Positions 11,792 through 20,463 of a stretch of DNA of 33,149 nucleotides are shown in pieces; the first letter of the stretch is position 1; each line of letters begins with the position of its first letter. The notes beneath the pieces are model-generated. The model made no database searches, was not told the DNA's origin, and saw only the letters and a program-made list of their open reading frames with translations. This stretch comes from Clostridia bacterium (GTDB lineage: Bacteria; Bacillota; Clostridia; Oscillospirales; CAG-272). The DNA is taken from positions 1 to 33,149 of the forward strand of contig JAFTIJ010000093.1 of assembly GCA_017456965.1 (NCBI GenBank), read 5' to 3'. The translations under genes and the position numbers were made by a program.

Positions 11792-11897
11792 AAAAAAGCG
11801 GGCAACGCCCGCAGGAAGGTGCTCGCCTATCGTAGCTTTCCGCGCAGACAAGCACGGCATAACGGCGAGGTCTGTTTTGCGCAATTTCCTATAGGGC
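11792..11897 (-). repeat. 95-bp structured repeat family C, copy 1 (core 11798-11892)
   Basis: gcgggcNNNgcccgc-N8-gctcgcctatcgtagctttccgcgcagacaagcacggcataacggcgaggt-N9-gcaatttcctat, aligning to four other copies without gaps. Confidence 0.95.
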
Positions 11898-11929
11898 AAA
11901 AAATATGCCCTCCCGTACGGGAGGGCATA
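11898..11929 (-). terminator. Intrinsic terminator of the HPr-like gene
   Basis: 12-bp IR tatgccctcccg/cgggagggcata followed by TTTTTT on the minus strand. Confidence 0.85.
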
Positions 11930-11949
11930 GATTTCAGAAATACGAATTA

Positions 11950-12186
11950 TCAGTCAACGATGTAAGCTTTGATTTCTTCCATGAGCTTGTCGCAGCTTTC
12001 AGCGTATGCAGTCAGAGTGATGGGGCTCATGAGATCAAGGCTGAAGATACCCATAATAGACTTTGCATCAACAACGTATCTGCCGCTGGCAAGGTCGATG
12101 TCACCCTCAAACTGACGAACGATTTCTACGAAATTCTGAACGTCCTTGATAGTGCTGAGACGGATTTTTACAGTTACAGAGTTCAT
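11950..12186 (-). CDS. HPr-family phosphocarrier-like protein lacking His15
   Basis: 78 aa with VDAKSIMGIFSL (Ser46 motif). There is no GLHARP motif and no His in the protein. Confidence 0.9.
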   Translation of the reverse strand: MNSVTVKIRLSTIKDVQNFVEIVRQFEGDIDLASGRYVVDAKSIMGIFSLDLMSPITLTAYAESCDKLMEEIKAYIVD

Positions 12187-12238
12187 TTTACTATCCCCTT
12201 TCATAATTTAGCGGACATAATTGTCCTATCATGATTAT

Positions 12239-12267
12239 ATGATACCAATTTTCGCATGAAAAGTCAA
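12239..12267 (-). promoter_or_regulatory. Sigma-A promoter of the HPr-like gene
   Basis: TTGACT-17 bp-TATCAT with TG extension. Confidence 0.7.
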
Positions 12268-12305
12268 TAGATATCATCAAAGTTTCTAAAATTTTCCTAT
12301 TATGT

Positions 12306-12830
12306 CTAAAAAAATGCAAGAAGCAATACCGTAAAATAGAGAAGATATACGACCCAGAGCGCGAAGAGGACGAGCGCGGCGGCGCAAAGGAGACTGATGC
12401 GATGCACGAAAAGCAAGAGCACCGCGACCCCGAGCAGGATCACCCCGCATAAAAGAGCACCGAGCAAGAAGCTCCCTGCCTTGCAGACAACGGGCGTCCA
12501 CGCGTAGCACAGAACGAGCAGACAGGAAAAGAGCACCAGCGCCCAGCGCTTCTGCATATGGAGCGCTCTCGTGTTCTCTCCGTAAAACGGCATCCCGAGT
12601 AAAATACCGAATGCCGCACCGAAGAGCGCGTAGGCGATAAATTGGAGCAACACCCCGAGAAACGACGGCAGAGCGGCGTTTGGAAGCAGAACGCAAGAGG
12701 GCTTACCGACGAGACTGACGGCGAAGATCGCGCCGAGGAGAACGCACACGCCCGCCGAAACGCCGAGCGTCACGGGTCGGATACAGGCAAGCTCCGTCTG
12801 AACGCGCCTTTTGATTTCACAGAATTTCAT
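12306..12830 (-). CDS. Five-helix membrane protein, TspO/MBR-like
   Basis: Five hydrophobic segments, an LP..ALP loop before helix 2, YALFGAA, WTPV and a C-terminal W..Y..YF pattern. Confidence 0.6.
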   Translation of the reverse strand: MKFCEIKRRVQTELACIRPVTLGVSAGVCVLLGAIFAVSLVGKPSCVLLPNAALPSFLGVLLQFIAYALFGAAFGILLGMPFYGENTRALHMQKRWALVLFSCLLVLCYAWTPVVCKAGSFLLGALLCGVILLGVAVLLLFVHRISLLCAAALVLFALWVVYLLYFTVLLLAFF

Positions 12831-12859
12831 GGCAAATATCCTTTCAGAAAAACTGAGAA

Positions 12860-12888
12860 AGTATATGCACACCGTCTGGAAATCATGC
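12860..12888 (-). promoter_or_regulatory. Sigma-E-like promoter upstream of the TspO-like gene
   Basis: GCATGAT-14 bp-CATATACT in the 62-bp gap after spoVFB. Confidence 0.5.
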
Positions 12889-12892
12889 CACC

Positions 12893-13450
12893 CTAAAAGA
12901 TCGGCATCAGCTGCTTACCCGCAAAGGCATCCATCATGGTCTTTTTTAAGAGGTCAAAGTCCGAGACCAGCGAGTACGGCTTCTTCTCGGGATCGTCCTG
13001 CCGCATGGGGACGAAATAAATATTTTTACGGTTCAGAAGCTGACCGATATTTTTGAGATTGGACGAGAGCGCGTCGTTGCTGGCGAGCGCGATCACGACG
13101 GGACGGTTGCAACGAAGCTGGGCCTTTGCCGCCATGGTCACGGGGCTATCCGTGATTCCCGAGGCGAGCTTGGCGAGCGTGTTGCCCGTACAGGGGGCGA
13201 TAACCAACATATCGAGCACGACCGAGGGACCGATGGGCTCGGTTTCCACAATGGTGTGCAAAACCCTGTTGCCGCAGAGCTCCTCCACCGTGCGCACGGT
13301 ATCCGCCGCCGCACCGAATCTGGTGTCGGTCGTGTAAACGCTCTCGTTCATGATCGGCAATATCCGGTTGCCCTCGGCAACGAGCGTGCGAAGCACCTTT
13401 ATGGATCGGGAAACGGTACAAAACGAACCGCAAAAGCAATAACCTATCAT
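12893..13450 (-). CDS. spoVFB: Dipicolinate synthase subunit B
   Basis: GSFCT, EPIGP, IAPCTGNTLAKLA.GITDSPVTMAAKA and QDDP.KKP.SL. Confidence 0.96.
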   Translation of the reverse strand: MIGYCFCGSFCTVSRSIKVLRTLVAEGNRILPIMNESVYTTDTRFGAAADTVRTVEELCGNRVLHTIVETEPIGPSVVLDMLVIAPCTGNTLAKLASGITDSPVTMAAKAQLRCNRPVVIALASNDALSSNLKNIGQLLNRKNIYFVPMRQDDPEKKPYSLVSDFDLLKKTMMDAFAGKQLMPIF

Positions 13451-13476
13451 AATTTCACTCCGATATTTATTTGTAT

Positions 13477-14325
13477 TTAAAAGGACAGACCCGACTCACA
13501 GAGCATCGTGAGCACCGTATGCGCAATGGCATAGCCCGCCGTCTCGGGCGAGAATCTGCCTGGCAGGGCGCGGGCAAGCACCGCCTGCACGCCAAAGGTC
13601 CGTGCCGCCTCAAAGTCCACGCCGTACGGCTCAGAGGCAAGCTCCAGAACGAGCGCACTCGGCGTCATCACGCAGAGGGGCTCGTGCCCGATCACAGGCG
13701 AGGGCACCGTATTGATAAGACACGTGAGCTCCCTTGCGCGGTGACAGAGCTCGGAGAGGGGAGCGGCACAGTAGCCGAGCACAGACGCCACGGCGCAGAC
13801 CTCCGTGCGTCTGGCAAAGACCGTCACGCGTGCACCCGCCGCACGGAAGAGCGCCGCGACCGCCTTCCCCACCCTGCCGAAGCCGACCACGCCCACGCGG
13901 GCGCCGCTTACCGTACAGGATAGCTTCTGCATCGCAAGCAGGAGCGCACCCTCTGCTGTCGGGATCGCGTTTGCCTGCGCGAAGTCGGGGCGCGAGGCAT
14001 AATCGAAAAAGCGCGCGTCGTCAAGCTCACCGCCGCCGAAGATCCGTGCGTGGCTCGGCGTGTGTGCAAGGATATCGGAAAGAGTTGGCGGCGAGGAGAG
14101 GGCGGGTGCCCACAGCGTACGGCCGTCCCGACTGAGCGGCACGGGCAAGAGCACCAGATCGCACGCATCCAGTGCCGCCGTAACCGAGGCACACGCGCTG
14201 ACCCCCTCGCCGCTCTCTCCCATCACACCGAAGCTCCTTACAAAAAAGCCGGACGAGGCAAGCCGACGCCCCGCATACGGCATCCGCTCATCACCGCCCA
14301 GCACCGCAACCGTATATTTTGCCAT
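13477..14325 (-). CDS. spoVFA: Dipicolinate synthase subunit A
   Basis: VLGGDER, NAIPTAEGA, GFGRVG, INTVPS, LAS.P.GVDF and LPG..SP.TAG. Confidence 0.93.
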   Translation of the reverse strand: MAKYTVAVLGGDERMPYAGRRLASSGFFVRSFGVMGESGEGVSACASVTAALDACDLVLLPVPLSRDGRTLWAPALSSPPTLSDILAHTPSHARIFGGGELDDARFFDYASRPDFAQANAIPTAEGALLLAMQKLSCTVSGARVGVVGFGRVGKAVAALFRAAGARVTVFARRTEVCAVASVLGYCAAPLSELCHRARELTCLINTVPSPVIGHEPLCVMTPSALVLELASEPYGVDFEAARTFGVQAVLARALPGRFSPETAGYAIAHTVLTMLCESGLSF

Positions 14326-14434
14326 AAAAACCCCCTTGCCGTAGCATCGCAATATTCTGTTCCGAGCCCATAAACCTCGGACGACACAAAAGCCAACATA
14401 TGCGTCACCCCGTGATTTCATGCACGGATATTTT

Positions 14435-14463
14435 CATTTTATGCCAAAACCTCATTCCGTGTC
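14435..14463 (-). promoter_or_regulatory. Sigma-K-like promoter of spoVFAB
   Basis: GACA-16 bp-CATAAAATG fits AC-N16/17-CATAnnnT(A/G); spoVF is sigma-K dependent in Bacillus subtilis. Confidence 0.6.
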
Positions 14464-14477
14464 ACGCACTTCTTTCG

Positions 14478-14701
14478 GCAATTTCCTATGATAAAAAAGC
14501 GGGCAGTGCCCGCCTCCATGTGCTCGCCTATCTCAGCTTTCCGCGCAGACAAGCACGGCATAACGGCGAGGTTGATTTCGAGCAATTTCCTATGGCGCAA
14601 AAAGCGGGCAACGCCCGCAGGAGGGTGCTCGCCTATCGTAGCTTTCCGCGCAGACAAGCACGGCAAAACGGCGAGGTTGATTTCGAGCAATTTCCTATGG
14701 T
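14478..14701 (-). repeat. Repeat family C: tandem copies 2 and 3 (cores 14499-14593 and 14604-14698) plus a 12-bp partial unit at 14478-14489
   Basis: 105-bp period; gcaatttcctatg occurs at 14478, 14582 and 14687. Confidence 0.95.
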
Positions 14702-14708
14702 AAAAAAA

Positions 14709-14910
14709 GGGGCTGTCTCACTAACGAAAATTGCAAAAAAAGCCTCCCCTGTGTAAGGGGAGGTGCCGCGGAACGCGGCGGAGGGGTTGTAAATAACATA
14801 AATCTTGCAGACAAACAATCCCTCAGTCGCTATCGCGCCAGCTCCCTTTGCACAAGGGAGCCTTTCTTTTTATTTACTTTTTGCAAATTATCCTTGAATG
14901 AGACAGACCC
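14709..14910. mobile_element. Nested palindromic/MITE-like structure containing a REP family A inverted doublet
   Basis: Outer IR ggggctgtctca/tgagacagaccc; middle IR ttgcaaaaa (14731)/tttttgcaa (14878); inner imperfect ~50-bp IR pair at 14741-14790 and 14815-14863. Confidence 0.6.
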
Positions 14911-14978
14911 GAATGCTTTTATGCTGTTTTTACACGATGCCGTTTACCGTGCTCTGATACACGGAGGGCATGGTCTGC

Positions 14979-17192
14979 TTACGCCATTTTGGACATCTCT
15001 CTTTGTGCCATGACGAGATTATAATAGATGCCCTGCTTCTCGATCAGCTCCTCATGGGTGCCGATCTCCGCGATCTTGCCGCGGTCGAGCACGACGAGGC
15101 GGGTCGCGTTGCGAAGCGTGGAGAGACGGTGTGCGATGGCGATGGTCGTGCGCTCATGGGAGAGCGCCGCCAGAGAATCCTGAATCTGCTTCTCGGTCTC
15201 GGTATCCAGCGATGCCGTTGCCTCGTCGAGGATCAAGATCTTGGGGTTGTGAAGCAGTGCGCGCGCGATGGCGATACGCTGCTTCTCACCGCCCGAGAGC
15301 GTACAGCCCTTCTCACCGACCCACGTATCGTATCCGTCGGTCAGCTTGACGATGAAGCTGTGTGCGCCCGCGATCTTTGCCGCACGGATGACGTCCTCAC
15401 GGCTGGCGTCGGGCTTGGCGTAGGCGATATTCTGGAAGATCGAGCCGTTGAAGAGGAAGGTCTCCTGCAAGACGACACCGATCTGAGAGCGCAGAGACTG
15501 CTGAGAGATATTGCGGATATCCACACCGTCGATCTTCAGCGTGCCCTCGTCCACGTCGTACATACGCATGATGAGATTGATCAGCGTGGATTTACCCGTA
15601 CCGGATTTACCGACGAGACCGATAAACTCACCCGGCTTGATCTGCAGATTGATATGTCGCAGAACGTCTACGGCCTCGTCGTAGCCGAAGGAGACGTTCT
15701 CAAGCTCGATACTGCCCTCCACCTTCAGATCCACAGCGTCCTTGGCGTCCGCGATATCCTCGGGCTCGTCGATGATCTCAAAGACCTTGGTCACAGAGGT
15801 CATCGCCATCATGAACTGACGGGGGAAGCCCGCGAGGAACTGAAGCGGTGCGTAGATCATGGTGGAGTAGGTCGAGAACTTCGCCATTTCACCGAGGGTC
15901 ATCGTGCCGCCTAAAATCGCGTTGCCCGCGTAGAAAAGGAGGAAGAACTCACCGAAGCCCATCAAGAAGTGCAGAATCGGGTTGATATACGCCCATTTGG
16001 TCTCGATCTTGAGCTGGGTATCCTTCTCCGCGGCGGCAAAGGACTCAAAGCGCTTTGCCTCACGGTGCTCCATGCCGTAGGATTTTACGACGCGGATACC
16101 CGAGAAGATATCGTGCAAAACGGTATTGGACTGAGAGGAACGCTCCCAGCTTCTGCGGAAGAGCTGACCCATCATTCTGCGGAAGAGCGAGAATGCAACG
16201 AAGATCAGCGGCATCGGCAGGATGATCAGAAGCGCCAGACGGTAGTCGTACAGGAAAAGCACGGTACCGACCGCGATAAAGAGCATGACCTGCTCCAAAA
16301 GCCGCGCCATTTCGTTGACCACGAACATACGGATACGGCCCGTATCCGAGGAGACGCGGTTCATCAGCTCACCGGCCGTGCGCTTGGAGATGCGCGAGAT
16401 CGAGAGACGCTGGATCTTTTCAAAGACGATATTTCTGAGATTGTGTACGACCTTATTGCCCGCGATCAGCAGAAAATACTTCTGGATCGAGGAGAACGCC
16501 CGCTGCAGAAGCTGCATCAGCAAAATCTGCCCAAGCACGAGCAAAAAGCCCGTGAGAAGCACCGACTCGGGGTTCTCGTTCAGAATATAGTTGTCGGTCA
16601 GGTTCTGGCTGATCTGCGGCGCGATCAGGCTCACGGCAGAGGTCAGGACGAAGACCAGAATGGATGCGAAGATATACCACTTGTAGGGACTCGCCACACC
16701 CCAGAGTCGCTTGATCATCTTGCGCTTGCTGAAGCAGGAGAGGCAGGTCTGAGAGCCTGCGCGGTACGCGCGTCCGCAACGGGGGCATACCAGCTCCTGC
16801 GGCGCGTGCTTATGAAAGGCGTGCTCGTCGTAGCGCATGAAGCCGTTGACCGCCTTGACGGCGGAGGCGAGCTTATTCTTGTGGTGGCAGTCTGCGCGGG
16901 AGATCAAACGGCTCTCGCCGTTTTTCCGCGTATACTCCACAAAGACACAGCCCACACCCGCAAAGAAGCGGAACTCCTGCACGTCGGAGAGCGATACGGC
17001 GTGCGTCTCCTTGCCCTCCTCGTATACCGTACAGGTATGACCGTCCACGATCACGAAGCCGTCACGGGTGTTATCGTTCGTTTCGAGGTCGAGGTTATAC
17101 TCCCAGAGCGCGACGACGTCGTCCTCTGTGAGCGTAGGGCAAAGAGCCCTTGCGCGTTCATACAGACGCTTGTTCGTTTCCGTCAATGTCAT
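14979..17192 (-). CDS. Type IV ABC exporter half-transporter (TMD+NBD) with ~160-aa N-terminal extension and Zn ribbon
   Basis: Walker A GKSGTGKST, LSGGEKQR, ILILDEAT and IAHRLSTL. CPRC..CLSC lies before the TMD. Confidence 0.93.
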   Translation of the reverse strand: MTLTETNKRLYERARALCPTLTEDDVVALWEYNLDLETNDNTRDGFVIVDGHTCTVYEEGKETHAVSLSDVQEFRFFAGVGCVFVEYTRKNGESRLISRADCHHKNKLASAVKAVNGFMRYDEHAFHKHAPQELVCPRCGRAYRAGSQTCLSCFSKRKMIKRLWGVASPYKWYIFASILVFVLTSAVSLIAPQISQNLTDNYILNENPESVLLTGFLLVLGQILLMQLLQRAFSSIQKYFLLIAGNKVVHNLRNIVFEKIQRLSISRISKRTAGELMNRVSSDTGRIRMFVVNEMARLLEQVMLFIAVGTVLFLYDYRLALLIILPMPLIFVAFSLFRRMMGQLFRRSWERSSQSNTVLHDIFSGIRVVKSYGMEHREAKRFESFAAAEKDTQLKIETKWAYINPILHFLMGFGEFFLLFYAGNAILGGTMTLGEMAKFSTYSTMIYAPLQFLAGFPRQFMMAMTSVTKVFEIIDEPEDIADAKDAVDLKVEGSIELENVSFGYDEAVDVLRHINLQIKPGEFIGLVGKSGTGKSTLINLIMRMYDVDEGTLKIDGVDIRNISQQSLRSQIGVVLQETFLFNGSIFQNIAYAKPDASREDVIRAAKIAGAHSFIVKLTDGYDTWVGEKGCTLSGGEKQRIAIARALLHNPKILILDEATASLDTETEKQIQDSLAALSHERTTIAIAHRLSTLRNATRLVVLDRGKIAEIGTHEELIEKQGIYYNLVMAQREMSKMA

Positions 17193-17200
17193 CACCCCGC

Positions 17201-17782
17201 TCAGAGATAGATTTCGATGCGCTTACGGCTCTTTCGGTCGAGCGTATCCACGTCCTCGATCACGAAGCGGTTACCGTCCACGTCGAAGAAAAAGAGCTTA
17301 TTCTCCCCTGCGCGCACGATACTCTTGAAGGTATCCTGCAGGGTAAAGGTCAATCTGCCGCCCGAGGTCTCTACGTCCCAGTAGGAGAAGCCGAAGCGGT
17401 CCTTGACGGAGAGGATCCTTGAGATCGCGGGAGAGTAATATTTGCGCTCCAGCTCGCGGACGAGAAGCGCCTTCATTTCTTCATCGAAGAGTGCGACGTC
17501 GCGGATGGTCGCAAGCTCATAGTTGCTCATATCGAGCACGGATATGTACTCCCAAAGGAAGGTAAACGGGAAGTTTCTGTGCAGATTCACACGCACAGGC
17601 TCCGCGTCCTTGGGGCACTGCATATAAAGGAAGCCGTTTTTCATGGAGAAGGTCGCGTTCTCCGCGCTGATCGCGGGCGCGTTGGGGTTCTCTCTGGAGC
17701 CTTTTCTCTTACCTTCGCCGGGGCCGCCGGGGCCGCCCATTCCTCGCGGTCCGCCGGGACCGCCCATCATTCTCGGTGCCAT
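17201..17782 (-). CDS. DUF1854-family protein with Gly/Pro-rich N-terminus
   Basis: R.FPF....EYISV.D, EL..I.D...D, L..EL.R.Y..P.I.RI.SV, W.VET..G...F and D.DGNRF.I.D...LD.KS pattern; flanked by ABC transporters. RBS AGGAG. Confidence 0.85.
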   Translation of the reverse strand: MAPRMMGGPGGPRGMGGPGGPGEGKRKGSRENPNAPAISAENATFSMKNGFLYMQCPKDAEPVRVNLHRNFPFTFLWEYISVLDMSNYELATIRDVALFDEEMKALLVRELERKYYSPAISRILSVKDRFGFSYWDVETSGGRLTFTLQDTFKSIVRAGENKLFFFDVDGNRFVIEDVDTLDRKSRKRIEIYL

Positions 17783-17815
17783 AGTATTTCCTCCTGTTCG
17801 TTCACGTTCGTATCG

Positions 17816-20083
17816 TTACTCTGCAATGCCGGCGTTCTTGAGCGCCTCGATCTGCAGGCTGTAAAGTCTGTGGTAAACACCCTCTGCCGCCATCAGCTCC
17901 TCGTGCGTGCCGCTCTCAGCGACCTTGCCGCCCTCGATGACGATCAGCTTATCCGCATCGCGCAGAGTCGAGAGTCTGTGCGCGATCATAATGGTGGTCT
18001 TGCCCTTGACGAGCTCCGTGAGCGCCGTCTGGATCTTGCGCTCGGTCTCGGTATCCATGGCCGCCGTCGCCTCGTCGAGGATCAGGATCCTCGGGTTGCG
18101 CAAAATCGCGCGCGCAATGGAGAGGCGCTGACGCTCACCGCCGGAGAGATCCTTGTAGCCGAAGCCGATCTTGGTCTCGTACGCGTCGGGGAGCTTCACG
18201 ATAAAGTCGTGCGCGCCCGCGGCCTTTGCCGCCTCAATGACGGCCTCGTAGCTTGCGTCGGGGCAGGCGTAGCGGATATTCTCAAGGATCGTACCCATAA
18301 AGAGGTAGGTCTCCTGAGATACGACGGCGATATTGCGATGGAGGTCCTCAAAGGAGAGCTTCTTGACATCCATGCCGTCGATGGTGATCACACCGCTCTC
18401 GGGATCGTACAGACGGATCAAGAGATTGGCAAGCGTGCTCTTGCCCGCGCCCGTGTGACCGACGATGCCGAGGGTCTGTCCCGCCTCGATATCGAAGCTG
18501 ACGCGGTCAATGACGCGGTGATTCTTGATGTAGGAGAAGGTGACGTCGTCAAAGCGGACGTGACCGTCAAAGCTATCGACGCGGATGGGGTTCTCCGCCT
18601 CGCGCACCTCAGTCTGGGAGTCCATGATCTCAAAGAGTCTCTGCAGAGAGTTTGAGCAGTCTGCCGTGATATCCGACATCTCGCTGAAGAACTGCAGGGG
18701 CGCGTAGATCATGCCGATGTACGCGATGAAGAGCGTCAGCGACGGGTAATCGAGCTGACCCTTGATAACAAGCCAGCCGCCAAGGCCCAACGTGACGAGA
18801 TTGCCGATCGAGTGGAGCAGAAAGCCCGAGATCGGAGAGATAAACGTATTGAAGATACCGCGGCGCACGTCAGCGTCGGCAAGACGCGCGGAACGGATAT
18901 TGAAGCGACCGATCTCCTCGTTCTCCTTGGAGAACGCCTTGACCACGCGCATACCCGAGAGCTCGTCGGAGAGGAACGAGGTCATGGCACGCTGGCTGGA
19001 GAAGCGGCGTGCGTGGAGCTTACGGTTCTTGGCAAAGCTCAGTCTCATGACCGTGAGCGACACGGGGATAACGAGCAGAGCACAGAGTGCAAGCCACGGA
19101 TTGATCAAGAAAAGCAATACGACCAGCACGACGACCTTGGCAACGTTGACAAGGAAGTGCGGCAGGATATTGCAGAAGAAGTCGTAGATGGTATTGGCGT
19201 CGTTGTTGACCTGCGTCATCAAGCCACCCGTCTGACGGCTCGTGAAGAAGCCGAGCGAGAGACGCTCGATCGCGCCGAAGATCGTTTTCTTCAGATCGAA
19301 GTTGACCTTGGCGGCAATGATAGAGGTCATATAGTTGTTGACGATCGTCGCACCCATCGTCAAGAGCTTGGTCGCAAGGATCATCATGAGCACGCGGATG
19401 ACCATGCCGTAGTAGGGGCTGGCGGTATCCGTCAGTACGTTTTTGATGAAGAAGCGCGACGAGAGATTTGCCGCCCAGATGCTGAGCGCCGTCATGCCGA
19501 TAAGCGACAGCAAGGACAAAACGAGATAGAGCTTGTAATTTAAGAAGAAGCTTGCGATACGCGTAAAGAGCTTGCCCTTCTCCATGCAACGCGGGCAGAT
19601 CTTACGGTTTTTCTCGGGGTAACGCTGACCGCACTTGGGGCAGTGGTTCGACTTGGGATCATCGTCGGGATCGACCGTAACGGCGCCCGTCCTCTTGATC
19701 TGACCGAGATATTTCTGGAAGACGATCATGGACGTACGGCAGAAGTTCGTCATCGCCGTGATGAAAACGGGCTCTCCCTCGTCGTTCACGGCAGTAAAGC
19801 GCGCACTGGAGAGCAGCTCCTCGATGCGGAAGCGGTCGAGCTTCGCAAGAGAATATACCCTGTAGTCGTGCTCCGTCCACGGGGACGCCCCGCCACCTTC
19901 TGCGGACGCAAACGTACCCGTCAGGACCGCAAGCTCCGTTGCCGTCGCAAACAGAAAGACGCTCGCGGGGGCATGATCGCGATCGCGGTCACATTTTGCC
20001 GCAAGGAGAATCTCATCCTCACGGACGCCCTTGGCATCCATGAGAGCATAGACCTCGCGCGGTATTTTATCAATTTCAAACAA
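17816..20083 (-). CDS. Type IV ABC exporter half-transporter with ~170-aa N-terminal extension and Zn ribbon
   Basis: GHTGAGKST, LSGGERQR, ILILDEAT, IAHRLSTL and CPKC..CPRC. TTG start after AAGGAGG. Confidence 0.93.
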   Translation of the reverse strand: MFEIDKIPREVYALMDAKGVREDEILLAAKCDRDRDHAPASVFLFATATELAVLTGTFASAEGGGASPWTEHDYRVYSLAKLDRFRIEELLSSARFTAVNDEGEPVFITAMTNFCRTSMIVFQKYLGQIKRTGAVTVDPDDDPKSNHCPKCGQRYPEKNRKICPRCMEKGKLFTRIASFFLNYKLYLVLSLLSLIGMTALSIWAANLSSRFFIKNVLTDTASPYYGMVIRVLMMILATKLLTMGATIVNNYMTSIIAAKVNFDLKKTIFGAIERLSLGFFTSRQTGGLMTQVNNDANTIYDFFCNILPHFLVNVAKVVVLVVLLFLINPWLALCALLVIPVSLTVMRLSFAKNRKLHARRFSSQRAMTSFLSDELSGMRVVKAFSKENEEIGRFNIRSARLADADVRRGIFNTFISPISGFLLHSIGNLVTLGLGGWLVIKGQLDYPSLTLFIAYIGMIYAPLQFFSEMSDITADCSNSLQRLFEIMDSQTEVREAENPIRVDSFDGHVRFDDVTFSYIKNHRVIDRVSFDIEAGQTLGIVGHTGAGKSTLANLLIRLYDPESGVITIDGMDVKKLSFEDLHRNIAVVSQETYLFMGTILENIRYACPDASYEAVIEAAKAAGAHDFIVKLPDAYETKIGFGYKDLSGGERQRLSIARAILRNPRILILDEATAAMDTETERKIQTALTELVKGKTTIMIAHRLSTLRDADKLIVIEGGKVAESGTHEELMAAEGVYHRLYSLQIEALKNAGIAE

Positions 20084-20120
20084 TGCAGAATGCCTCCTTT
20101 ACCTGCCAATTCTATTTAAA

Positions 20121-20149
20121 ATTATACCATACGGAAAAAATGGTGTCAA
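20121..20149 (-). promoter_or_regulatory. Consensus sigma-A promoter of the ABC-DUF1854-ABC operon
   Basis: TTGACA-17 bp-TATAAT with TG extension. Confidence 0.85.
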
Positions 20150-20150
20150 C

Positions 20151-20180
20151 AAAAAAAGGAGAACCGCGACGCAATTCTCC
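20151..20180 (-). terminator. Intrinsic terminator immediately upstream of the ABC promoter
   Basis: The minus strand reads GGAGAAUUGC-GUC-GCGGUUCUCC-UUUUUUU (two G-U pairs). Confidence 0.7.
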
Positions 20181-20203
20181 ATTGACAAGTTTTTTCAAAA
20201 AAC

Positions 20204-20412
20204 AAAGCGGGCTGTGCCCGCATCCCCCGGCTCGCCTACCGTGGCTTTCCGTGCAGACAAGCACGGCATAACGGCGAGGTCGATTCTGAGCAATTTCCTA
20301 TGGTATAAAAAAGCGGGCTGTGCCCGCGGCCCCCGGCTCGCCTATCGTAGCTTGCCTTGTAGACAAGCACGGCATAACGGCGAGGTCTGGTTTGCGCAAT
20401 TTCCTATAGGTC
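20204..20412 (-). repeat. Repeat family C: tandem copies 4 and 5 (cores 20207-20301 and 20313-20407)
   Basis: 106-bp period; ungapped alignment to copies 1-3. Confidence 0.95.
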
Positions 20413-20446
20413 AAAAAAAGGACAGAGAATGGAAATTCTCTGTCCT
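20413..20446 (-). terminator. Intrinsic terminator of the LRR lipoprotein gene
   Basis: 12-bp IR aggacagagaat/attctctgtcct followed by a T-run on the minus strand. Confidence 0.85.
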
Positions 20447-20463
20447 CGTTTTGACAATCGGTA

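Follow-up and report, generated by a model that had tools for sequence, protein, structure and literature searches.

What kind of element is a 95-bp sequence that recurs five times, always in the same orientation, along a single contig of an uncultured bacterium? The question is raised by contig JAFTIJ010000093.1 of the Clostridia bacterium assembly GCA_017456965.1, analysed here over its whole length of 33,149 nt and referred to as the window, which is a complete contig of a 2.16-Mb, 190-contig, 75%-complete metagenome-assembled genome (MAG) of the Oscillospiraceae type with 55.5% GC. A preliminary description, made from this stretch alone, had considered a small RNA cassette, a protein-binding scaffold and a non-autonomous element. 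Our analysis points to the last of these, the units being probably copies of a high-copy, lineage-restricted, non-autonomous repeat of about 106 nt that targets terminators. The unit inserts in one orientation directly 3' of the T-tract of a GC hairpin; it has no terminal inverted repeat (TIR), leaves no duplication beyond the T-run and ends in its own covarying GC hairpin and T-run. The repeat is a familiar kind of small mobile-type bacterial repeat and not a new kind of system.

Copies in the window, the genome and related lineages

Repeat finding in the window returned one family of five copies of 110 nt with 80-100% identity, at spacings of 2701, 105, 5603 and 106, far beyond chance. The 95-bp cores lie at 11798-11892, 14499-14593, 14604-14698, 20207-20301 and 20313-20407, and their single shared orientation as well as the variants of the loop, the 8-nt and the 9-nt slots all read as first described. 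All five units are on the minus strand, at three loci and with a period of 105-106 bp. Unit 1 (11792-11897, 106 nt), delimited by repeat finding and by its profile match, opens with a 5-nt linker and the conserved head ATAGGAAATTGC, followed by a variable 9-nt stretch, a 30-nt variable segment enclosed by the two conserved core arms, a variable 8-nt stretch, the GC hairpin and the T-run. The other units form two tandem pairs, in which unit 3 (14599-14703, 105 nt) comes first and unit 2 (14493-14598, 106 nt) second, and unit 5 (20307-20412, 106 nt) first and unit 4 (20201-20306, 106 nt) second. A terminator scan of the window scored all five units as terminator-like.

Genome-wide, an iterated nhmmer profile (E 1e-3 or better) identified 401 matches to the repeat in the MAG, which provides the whole-genome copy count proposed at the outset. 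Near-full-length copies account for 211 of these, with 175 of exactly the model length and 36 carrying indels; the earlier statement that the slots never vary in length thus holds inside the window and fails across the genome. Together the copies add up to 38.9 kb, representing 1.8% of the assembly and, by a crude gene caller, approximately 9% of its non-coding DNA, and almost all matches are intergenic, with 14 of the 401 reaching more than 20 nt into a called gene. The matches are organised in 300 arrays (217 single, 67 double, 14 triple and two quadruple) that run head to tail, with six adjacent opposite-strand pairs among the 401 matches. Out of 380 contig ends, 97 have a copy within 300 bp, which makes the repeat a probable cause of breaks in the assembly. 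In assembled contigs from one metatranscriptome and three DNA runs, the depth peaks at the repeats reflect copy number and the joints are repeat-to-repeat chimeras.

The distribution across lineages is patchy. BLAST detected the repeat in nine out of 15 other species of the genus and in none of 25 genomes of other genera, and a covariance model run on 151 genomes from 97 genera of the family, in which the best 25 candidates per genome were scored under strict filters, placed it in at least five genomes and at least four genera, the source MAG included. Matching public contigs come from goat, sheep, deer and other gut samples and are labelled as MAGs of uncultured Oscillospiraceae, Eubacteriales or Clostridia; a further three public matches in unrelated phyla are at the chance level for the search pattern, and phage and plasmid collections contained nothing similar to the repeat. 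In agreement with the initial failure to recognise the family, the Rfam scan of the window gave no match at the gathering threshold (the top sub-threshold match was SorX, with 18.1 bits versus 46.6), and we found no publication on this repeat family in the full-text literature, a search that extended to the papers but not to the supplements of Weinberg 2010.

Insertion directly behind intrinsic terminators

The most direct view of the insertion point comes from a second repeat next to units 2 and 3, a 202-bp MITE (miniature inverted-repeat transposable element; 14709-14910, no strand assigned) with imperfect TIRs of about 30 nt that start with GGGGCTGTCTCA and with two opposed terminator-like hairpins. 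The MAG holds about 30 copies with 96-99% identity, many of them at contig ends, and by its sequence this is a true MITE that is predicted to act as a two-way terminator cassette. Among 13 paralogues examined, six were empty and seven were filled with one exact unit of 106-107 nt, located between TTTTT and ATTTAC and after the T-run of the plus-strand hairpin of the MITE; in the window copy this site is empty. The overlap between the junctions of filled and empty sites is restricted to the T-run (TTTTTAT), which could be the T-run of the unit itself rather than a duplication. Furthermore, aligning the first 35 nt of the unit with the reverse complement of its last 35 nt gave a score of 6, compared to 5.4 ± 1.2 in shuffles, so that the 106-nt unit has no TIR by an end alignment that is no better than shuffles. 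All seven filled paralogues carry one common head variant and differ in inner segment, slot and loop, indicating that the copies are mosaics.

The same arrangement is found at the terminators of genes. In the window, the head of unit 1 directly abuts the native intrinsic terminator of an HPr-like gene (11898-11929, minus strand), composed of a hairpin at 11904-11929 with 11 pairs, seven of them GC, and a T-run at 11898-11903. This site is filled in the source MAG and empty in all 15 other species of the genus, in which the hairpin is conserved and the T-run continues straight into the shared downstream sequence. Likewise, the head of unit 5 abuts the native terminator of an LRR_5 gene (20413-20447, minus strand; hairpin 20418-20447 with 13 pairs, T-run 20413-20419), and that of unit 3 abuts the T-run beside the end of the 202-bp MITE. 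Inspection of the flanks of 200 arrays showed that the first unit nearly always starts directly after a unique GC hairpin and T-run. Counting as a stable hairpin any fold within the 40 nt adjoining the array head whose minimum free energy was at most -10 kcal/mol, we found one at 146 out of the 200 arrays, versus 13% with the window shifted by 30 nt and 17% in the 40 nt past the last unit, and at 90% of the 108 arrays with a co-oriented upstream gene. The gene context agrees in direction, with 59 arrays between convergent genes and 19 between divergent genes, and with the upstream gene co-oriented in 133 arrays and opposed in 76. Together with the roughly 400 copies and the patchy distribution, the empty and filled sites support the option of a non-autonomous element that had been raised for the window.

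How such a unit might multiply behind genes can be outlined from these features. Its own hairpin and T-run would rebuild the target, which would allow head-to-tail stacking, aided by some tandem duplication, and would make insertions behind genes nearly harmless. The invariant head and the core arms CCTCGCCGTT... / ...GATAGGCGAG, spaced 28-31 nt apart, are putative recognition sites of a trans-acting enzyme or a host protein. An orphan head fragment in the window (14478-14492, minus strand), composed of linker and ATAGGAAATTGC, follows the last unit of the array of units 2 and 3, and similar orphan heads trail other arrays in the genome.

The surrounding genes, from about 8 kb to 21 kb, are all on the minus strand, as are the units. 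They encode LRR_5, two ABC (ATP-binding cassette) transporters with a DUF1854 gene between them, dpaA/dpaB-like proteins, TspO, the HPr-like protein and a D-Ala-D-Ala carboxypeptidase. The two ABC transporter genes (14979-17195 and 17816-20083, minus strand) are paralogues that each fuse a membrane domain with an ATPase domain; their aligned stretches show 71-74% identity at an offset of 2849 nt. Downstream of units 4 and 5 lies a consensus promoter-like site of an ABC transporter gene (20121-20149, minus strand; TTGACA-17-TATAAT), and downstream of units 2 and 3 a promoter-like site precedes the dpaA-like gene (14436-14465, minus strand). In the window, each array has a native terminator on one side and, on the other, the promoter-like site of the gene that follows on the same strand.

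The terminal hairpin and the variable slots

The structure was studied in a cross-species alignment that covers the window and at least 15 MAG species with 80 sequences, 77 of them distinct; for most of the cross-species copies the core arms were the search pattern, a choice that exaggerates how invariant they look. Across the 77 distinct sequences the terminal hairpin is 99.4% paired, and double changes number 43 and 36 at two of its pairs, with four to five pair types each. For the whole structure the covariation score is 0.244, which none of 500 shuffles attained (0.100), and sliding the partners gave no more than 0.064. The terminal hairpin is the sole covarying part of the unit. The outer stem (99.1% paired) is uninformative because it is nearly invariant and part of the cross-species search pattern, and the inner stem is 54.7% paired across species and shows no covariation within the source MAG. 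Of the minus-strand fold put forward in the preliminary description, the terminator hairpin is therefore retained and the inner stem is not supported, while the outer stem speaks neither for nor against the fold. Folded alone, the inner segment, which is 30 nt long and varies from 28 to 31 nt across species, is structured by its mean z within the source MAG (-1.9) and unstructured in the cross-species set (-0.66), and single-sequence folds of the unit are mildly better than shuffles (z -0.75 to -2.77).

That fold had also been argued from a G/A variation which keeps pairing on the minus strand only. This applies to the window; genome-wide, the columns of this diagnostic inner-stem pair vary independently (TG 70, CG 61, TA 43, CA 33). 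On the element strand, the ratio of G.U-type to A.C-type cells, which tally sequences and not independent events, amounts to 121:105 for the inner stem, 9:8 for the outer one and 26:5 for the hairpin, the last differing from the other two stems combined (130:113; Fisher p 0.0017). Only the terminal hairpin is read on the element strand.

The variable slots had been suspected to be spacer- or guide-like, which their distribution speaks against, as they occur in few discrete states common to many copies and assort independently of the head variant. In the 9-nt stretch before the hairpin, 71 variants were counted in 211 copies, with three 9-mers seen 24, 22 and 16 times. The slot class CCTTCCT is linked to the loop GTT in 50 out of 50 cases, and slot and head-linker classes combine independently (26/30/40 versus 22/33/41). 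Moreover, mutual information is highest between neighbouring columns, which indicates subfamily linkage and not base pairs. To judge from these sequences, the slots are subfamily markers reshuffled by recombination, not guides. CsrA-like GGA motifs or anti-Shine-Dalgarno strings as the content of the slot were considered and dropped, since there are three slot classes of similar size. Similarly, an outward promoter on the antisense strand of the head was rejected, as no site passed the window scan and the most conserved letters fall in the would-be spacer. In contrast to the guide proposal, the suggestion of non-neutral constraint is borne out: in 168 nearest-neighbour pairs, the divergence per site is 0.02-0.06 for head, core arms and hairpin stems, compared to 0.10-0.21 for the variable stretches.

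The core of the unit recurs in a second repeat family of the source MAG (contigs C126:56-252, C43:624-810, C151:5736, C44:55 and others), which has model columns ~26-105 (core and hairpin) in common with the unit and a different, longer head. In this family, tandem runs of a 28-nt tail module composed of slot and hairpin often replace the T-run. In addition, the MAG contains 18 matches to the Gut-1 RNA motif (RF01706), five of them above the gathering score (C42:3137-3207, C99:2674-2759, C168:31-101, C170:31-101 and 14 more). Gut-1 looks like a part of a longer multi-hairpin interspersed repeat, and in at least three copies it directly follows the head and first core arm of the 106-nt unit; in the accessible text of Weinberg 2010 (PMC2864571) it is listed as 'human gut only' and as known from environmental sequences alone. 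Finally, an intergenic string ...GATCCTTCACT...CGTTCGAGGATGACAG... recurs near several arrays (C4 ~18600-18700, C101 ~15380 and C143 ~20150).

Mobilisation, rival explanations and related elements

The units also show a strand preference. With all copies masked, the element strand coincides with the strand that is locally richer in G in 167 out of 259 arrays (by contig 57 versus 29, with 25 ties; p 0.003), and this bias grows with the size of the skew. Coding-sense skew averages about zero, and gene orientation is unrelated to GC skew (r -0.03 in 328 windows of 5 kb, using the crude gene caller), which is unusual for a Firmicute; the target genes therefore do not explain the strand bias. Under the condition that G-richness marks leading-strand sequence in this fragmented MAG, the bias would match that of single-strand elements. 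For such elements, which use the lagging-strand template, a strand bias of this kind is reported in the available sections of two papers (PMC5027513, PMC6006769). The strand-specific use of the target and the G-rich bias of the units may thus point to a single-stranded intermediate.

The search for a mobilising enzyme provided several candidates, none of which could be kept. The preliminary description had suggested looking for copies that flank a transposase, reverse transcriptase or nuclease gene, and the MAG offers such a case: the sole IS110-family (DEDD) transposase gene of the MAG (C4:17079-18249, minus strand, 419-aa frame) lies about 200 nt upstream of a partial repeat copy without head, and the IS110 element may have landed in or beside a unit. 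An open reading frame (ORF) of about 1430 aa with a weak match to the IS110 model was rejected as partner: the match is spurious, the 1436-aa product (C124:1350-5660, minus strand) being a BcrAD_BadFG/DUF2229 protein of the CoA-enzyme-activase type and a clade marker. This ORF is present in nine out of ten repeat-positive and in none of six repeat-negative genomes, suggesting that the repeat-positive species probably form one clade. In a relative (L013; G015:C168, 1184-1340), an IS200-like element with a strong Y1_Tnp match and a 154-aa frame has a right-end hairpin that runs straight into a repeat unit with no T-run between them; it was rejected as partner since nothing links its ends to the ends of the unit.

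Several observations weigh against a mobile, terminator-targeting repeat. The 75%-complete MAG has no Y1_Tnp match (PF01797: 0), no RVT_1 match and no arrangement of head, gene and tail, and pairing of 5'-partial with 3'-partial matches yielded only one pair, with a 154-nt gap, leaving the reading without a partner enzyme. Across the genus, Y1_Tnp, with matches in five out of 15 other species, RVT_1 and true IS110 do not track the repeat. The target rule has exceptions, as the upstream hairpin is missing at 27% of the arrays, sense and antisense arrays are equally frequent between co-directional genes (49 versus 44), and in some cases 15-35 nt separate the head from the start codon of a gene on the opposite strand; all gene calls come from a crude in-house caller. 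The copies are not very young, with a median nearest-copy identity of 93%. Furthermore, adjacent units are more alike than random pairs (mean 0.849 versus 0.778), and seven out of 52 adjacent pairs have at least 97% identity, so that stacking is in part tandem duplication and not re-insertion alone; the rest of the stacking juxtaposes different variants, which fits renewed insertion behind the hairpin and T-run of the unit itself. Finally, change is 3-8 times slower in the conserved blocks than in the variable stretches, which indicates a constraint in place beyond pure parasitism.

A rather unlikely, if more specific, version of mobility is that the repeat moves via a single-stranded RNA or DNA intermediate that reads 'hairpin plus T-tract' on one strand, either as a SINE (short interspersed nuclear element)-like retroposon primed on a T/A-tract or as a mini-element of an unrecognised single-strand enzyme. 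If this were true, the invariant core common to the second repeat family would be the handle gripped by the mobilising enzyme, and the repeat would represent a new route by which small repeats colonise terminators while renewing their own target.

The same constraint could also reflect use by the host, and we consider it unlikely that the repeat is kept as a putative terminator or insulator cassette, or as a 3'-end stabiliser, that backs up leaky terminators or protects mRNA 3' ends, with mobility as its origin only. The position of all window arrays between a native terminator and the next same-strand promoter-like site is what such a cassette predicts, as are the co-oriented upstream gene in 133 versus 76 arrays, the slow evolution of the conserved blocks and a hairpin that is 99.4% paired with real covariation and whose sense strand tolerates G.U and not A.C (26:5). 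A terminator role leaves the sequence-invariant head and core arms outside the hairpin unexplained, however, 44 out of 93 arrays between co-directional genes point the wrong way, and the sites are not conserved between species (0 out of 15 at the HPr site).

Very unlikely, in our view, is a DNA-level scaffold comparable to REP/BIME, on whose half-sites a putative host protein would shape supercoiling or the nucleoid. The two invariant and mutually complementary 6-nt arms, kept 28-31 nt apart across species with the sequence between them free, would suit such a function, and so would the second repeat family with the same core under a different head and tail; yet the invariance of the arms is inflated by their use as the cross-species search pattern, none of our analyses implies a binding protein, and both the G.U pattern and the target are strand-specific, favouring a single-strand reading over a duplex site.

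Highly improbable is a multicopy small-RNA gene family in which each unit gives a minus-strand RNA of about 100 nt with the slots as seeds or guides, since, for all that every unit ends in a terminator, that some slots resemble an anti-Shine-Dalgarno sequence (CCUUCCU) or carry GGA motifs and that some copies fold better than shuffles (z down to -2.77), a simple sigma-70 scan of the window found no promoter-like site in or just upstream of the units, whose heads abut the upstream T-run and leave no room for one, covariation is limited to the terminator hairpin, the slots are few discrete reassorting states, no Rfam family matches, and some 400 copies with empty and filled sites behave as a mobile repeat; the structured-RNA cassette proposed for the window is thus not sustained.

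Returning to the non-autonomous, terminator-targeting repeat, its functionally closest counterparts appear to be the pneumococcal SPRITE and also BOX, both compared here by description only; the host of SPRITE belongs to a different phylum. In the accessible parts of the 2011 account (PMC3049150), SPRITE is described as a terminator-like hairpin with a U-tract whose 'TIRs' are only AAAA/TTTT, which has no demonstrable target-site duplication (TSD) and is strongly concentrated near gene 3' ends; it is regarded as a parasitic, mobile repeat with a possible role as a terminator. As far as this account goes, both are small non-coding repeats built around a terminator-like hairpin and a T/U tract, with enrichment at 3' ends, no real TIR and no demonstrable TSD. 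With about 30 copies, SPRITE combines an 18-bp stem with an AT-rich body, whereas the repeat described here exists in about 400 copies, its GC stem measures 6 bp and its hairpin is preceded by a long invariant head and core; it also forms head-to-tail arrays, and empty and filled sites define its insertion point, which, according to the same account, was impossible for SPRITE. BOX of streptococci (boxA-boxB(n)-boxC), judging from the available passages (PMC3049150, PMC3184786), is similarly modular: here the head, core and tail variants assort independently, the core is reused with another head and the 28-nt tail module occurs in tandem runs. BOX differs, as described there, in having TIRs, making TSDs and not being tied to terminators.

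With MITEs in the strict sense, as portrayed in the sections available from Delihas 2011 (PMC3184786), the unit has in common that it is short, non-coding, multicopy and intergenic, with presence/absence polymorphism and a predicted stem-loop. It differs in lacking TIRs, in having no TSD beyond the T-run overlap and in that no parent insertion sequence with matching ends was found; without TIRs the unit fails the MITE definition. The REP/BIME (REPIN) repeats resemble it as high-copy GC hairpins behind genes that break assemblies, but the same sections (PMC3184786) depict REPs as palindromes of ~35 nt, often in inverted pairs and with a RAYT partner, in contrast to the direct 106-nt units here. 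A REPIN-RAYT relationship also disagrees with the lack of Y1_Tnp in the source MAG and with Y1_Tnp matches in the genus that do not track the repeat.

Two further systems are alike in their working only. Group IIC introns are located downstream of terminator motifs, in which Ts follow an inverted repeat, according to the accessible part of PMC1702495, and IS200/IS605 elements have no TIR or TSD, carry subterminal hairpins, insert beside a short target and target the lagging-strand template, as stated in the available text of PMC5027513 and PMC6006769. Both would fit the strand-specific target and the G-rich bias of the repeat; they differ in that no reverse transcriptase or TnpA was found in the MAG and no Rfam intron match in the window, and 106 nt is far too small for an intron.

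In conclusion, the repeat makes up about 2% of the genome, and about 9% of its non-coding part, in an abundant, uncultured group of animal-gut Clostridia, where it may mislead screens for non-coding RNAs and probably fragments the assemblies of these bacteria. It provides a clean natural case of an element without TIRs and without a demonstrable TSD that chooses intrinsic terminators in a strand-specific manner and would rebuild its own target, and the point of interest is how it is mobilised. Such a case makes it testable in these bacteria how small repeats pick safe landing sites and whether their hosts co-opt the units as extra terminators.

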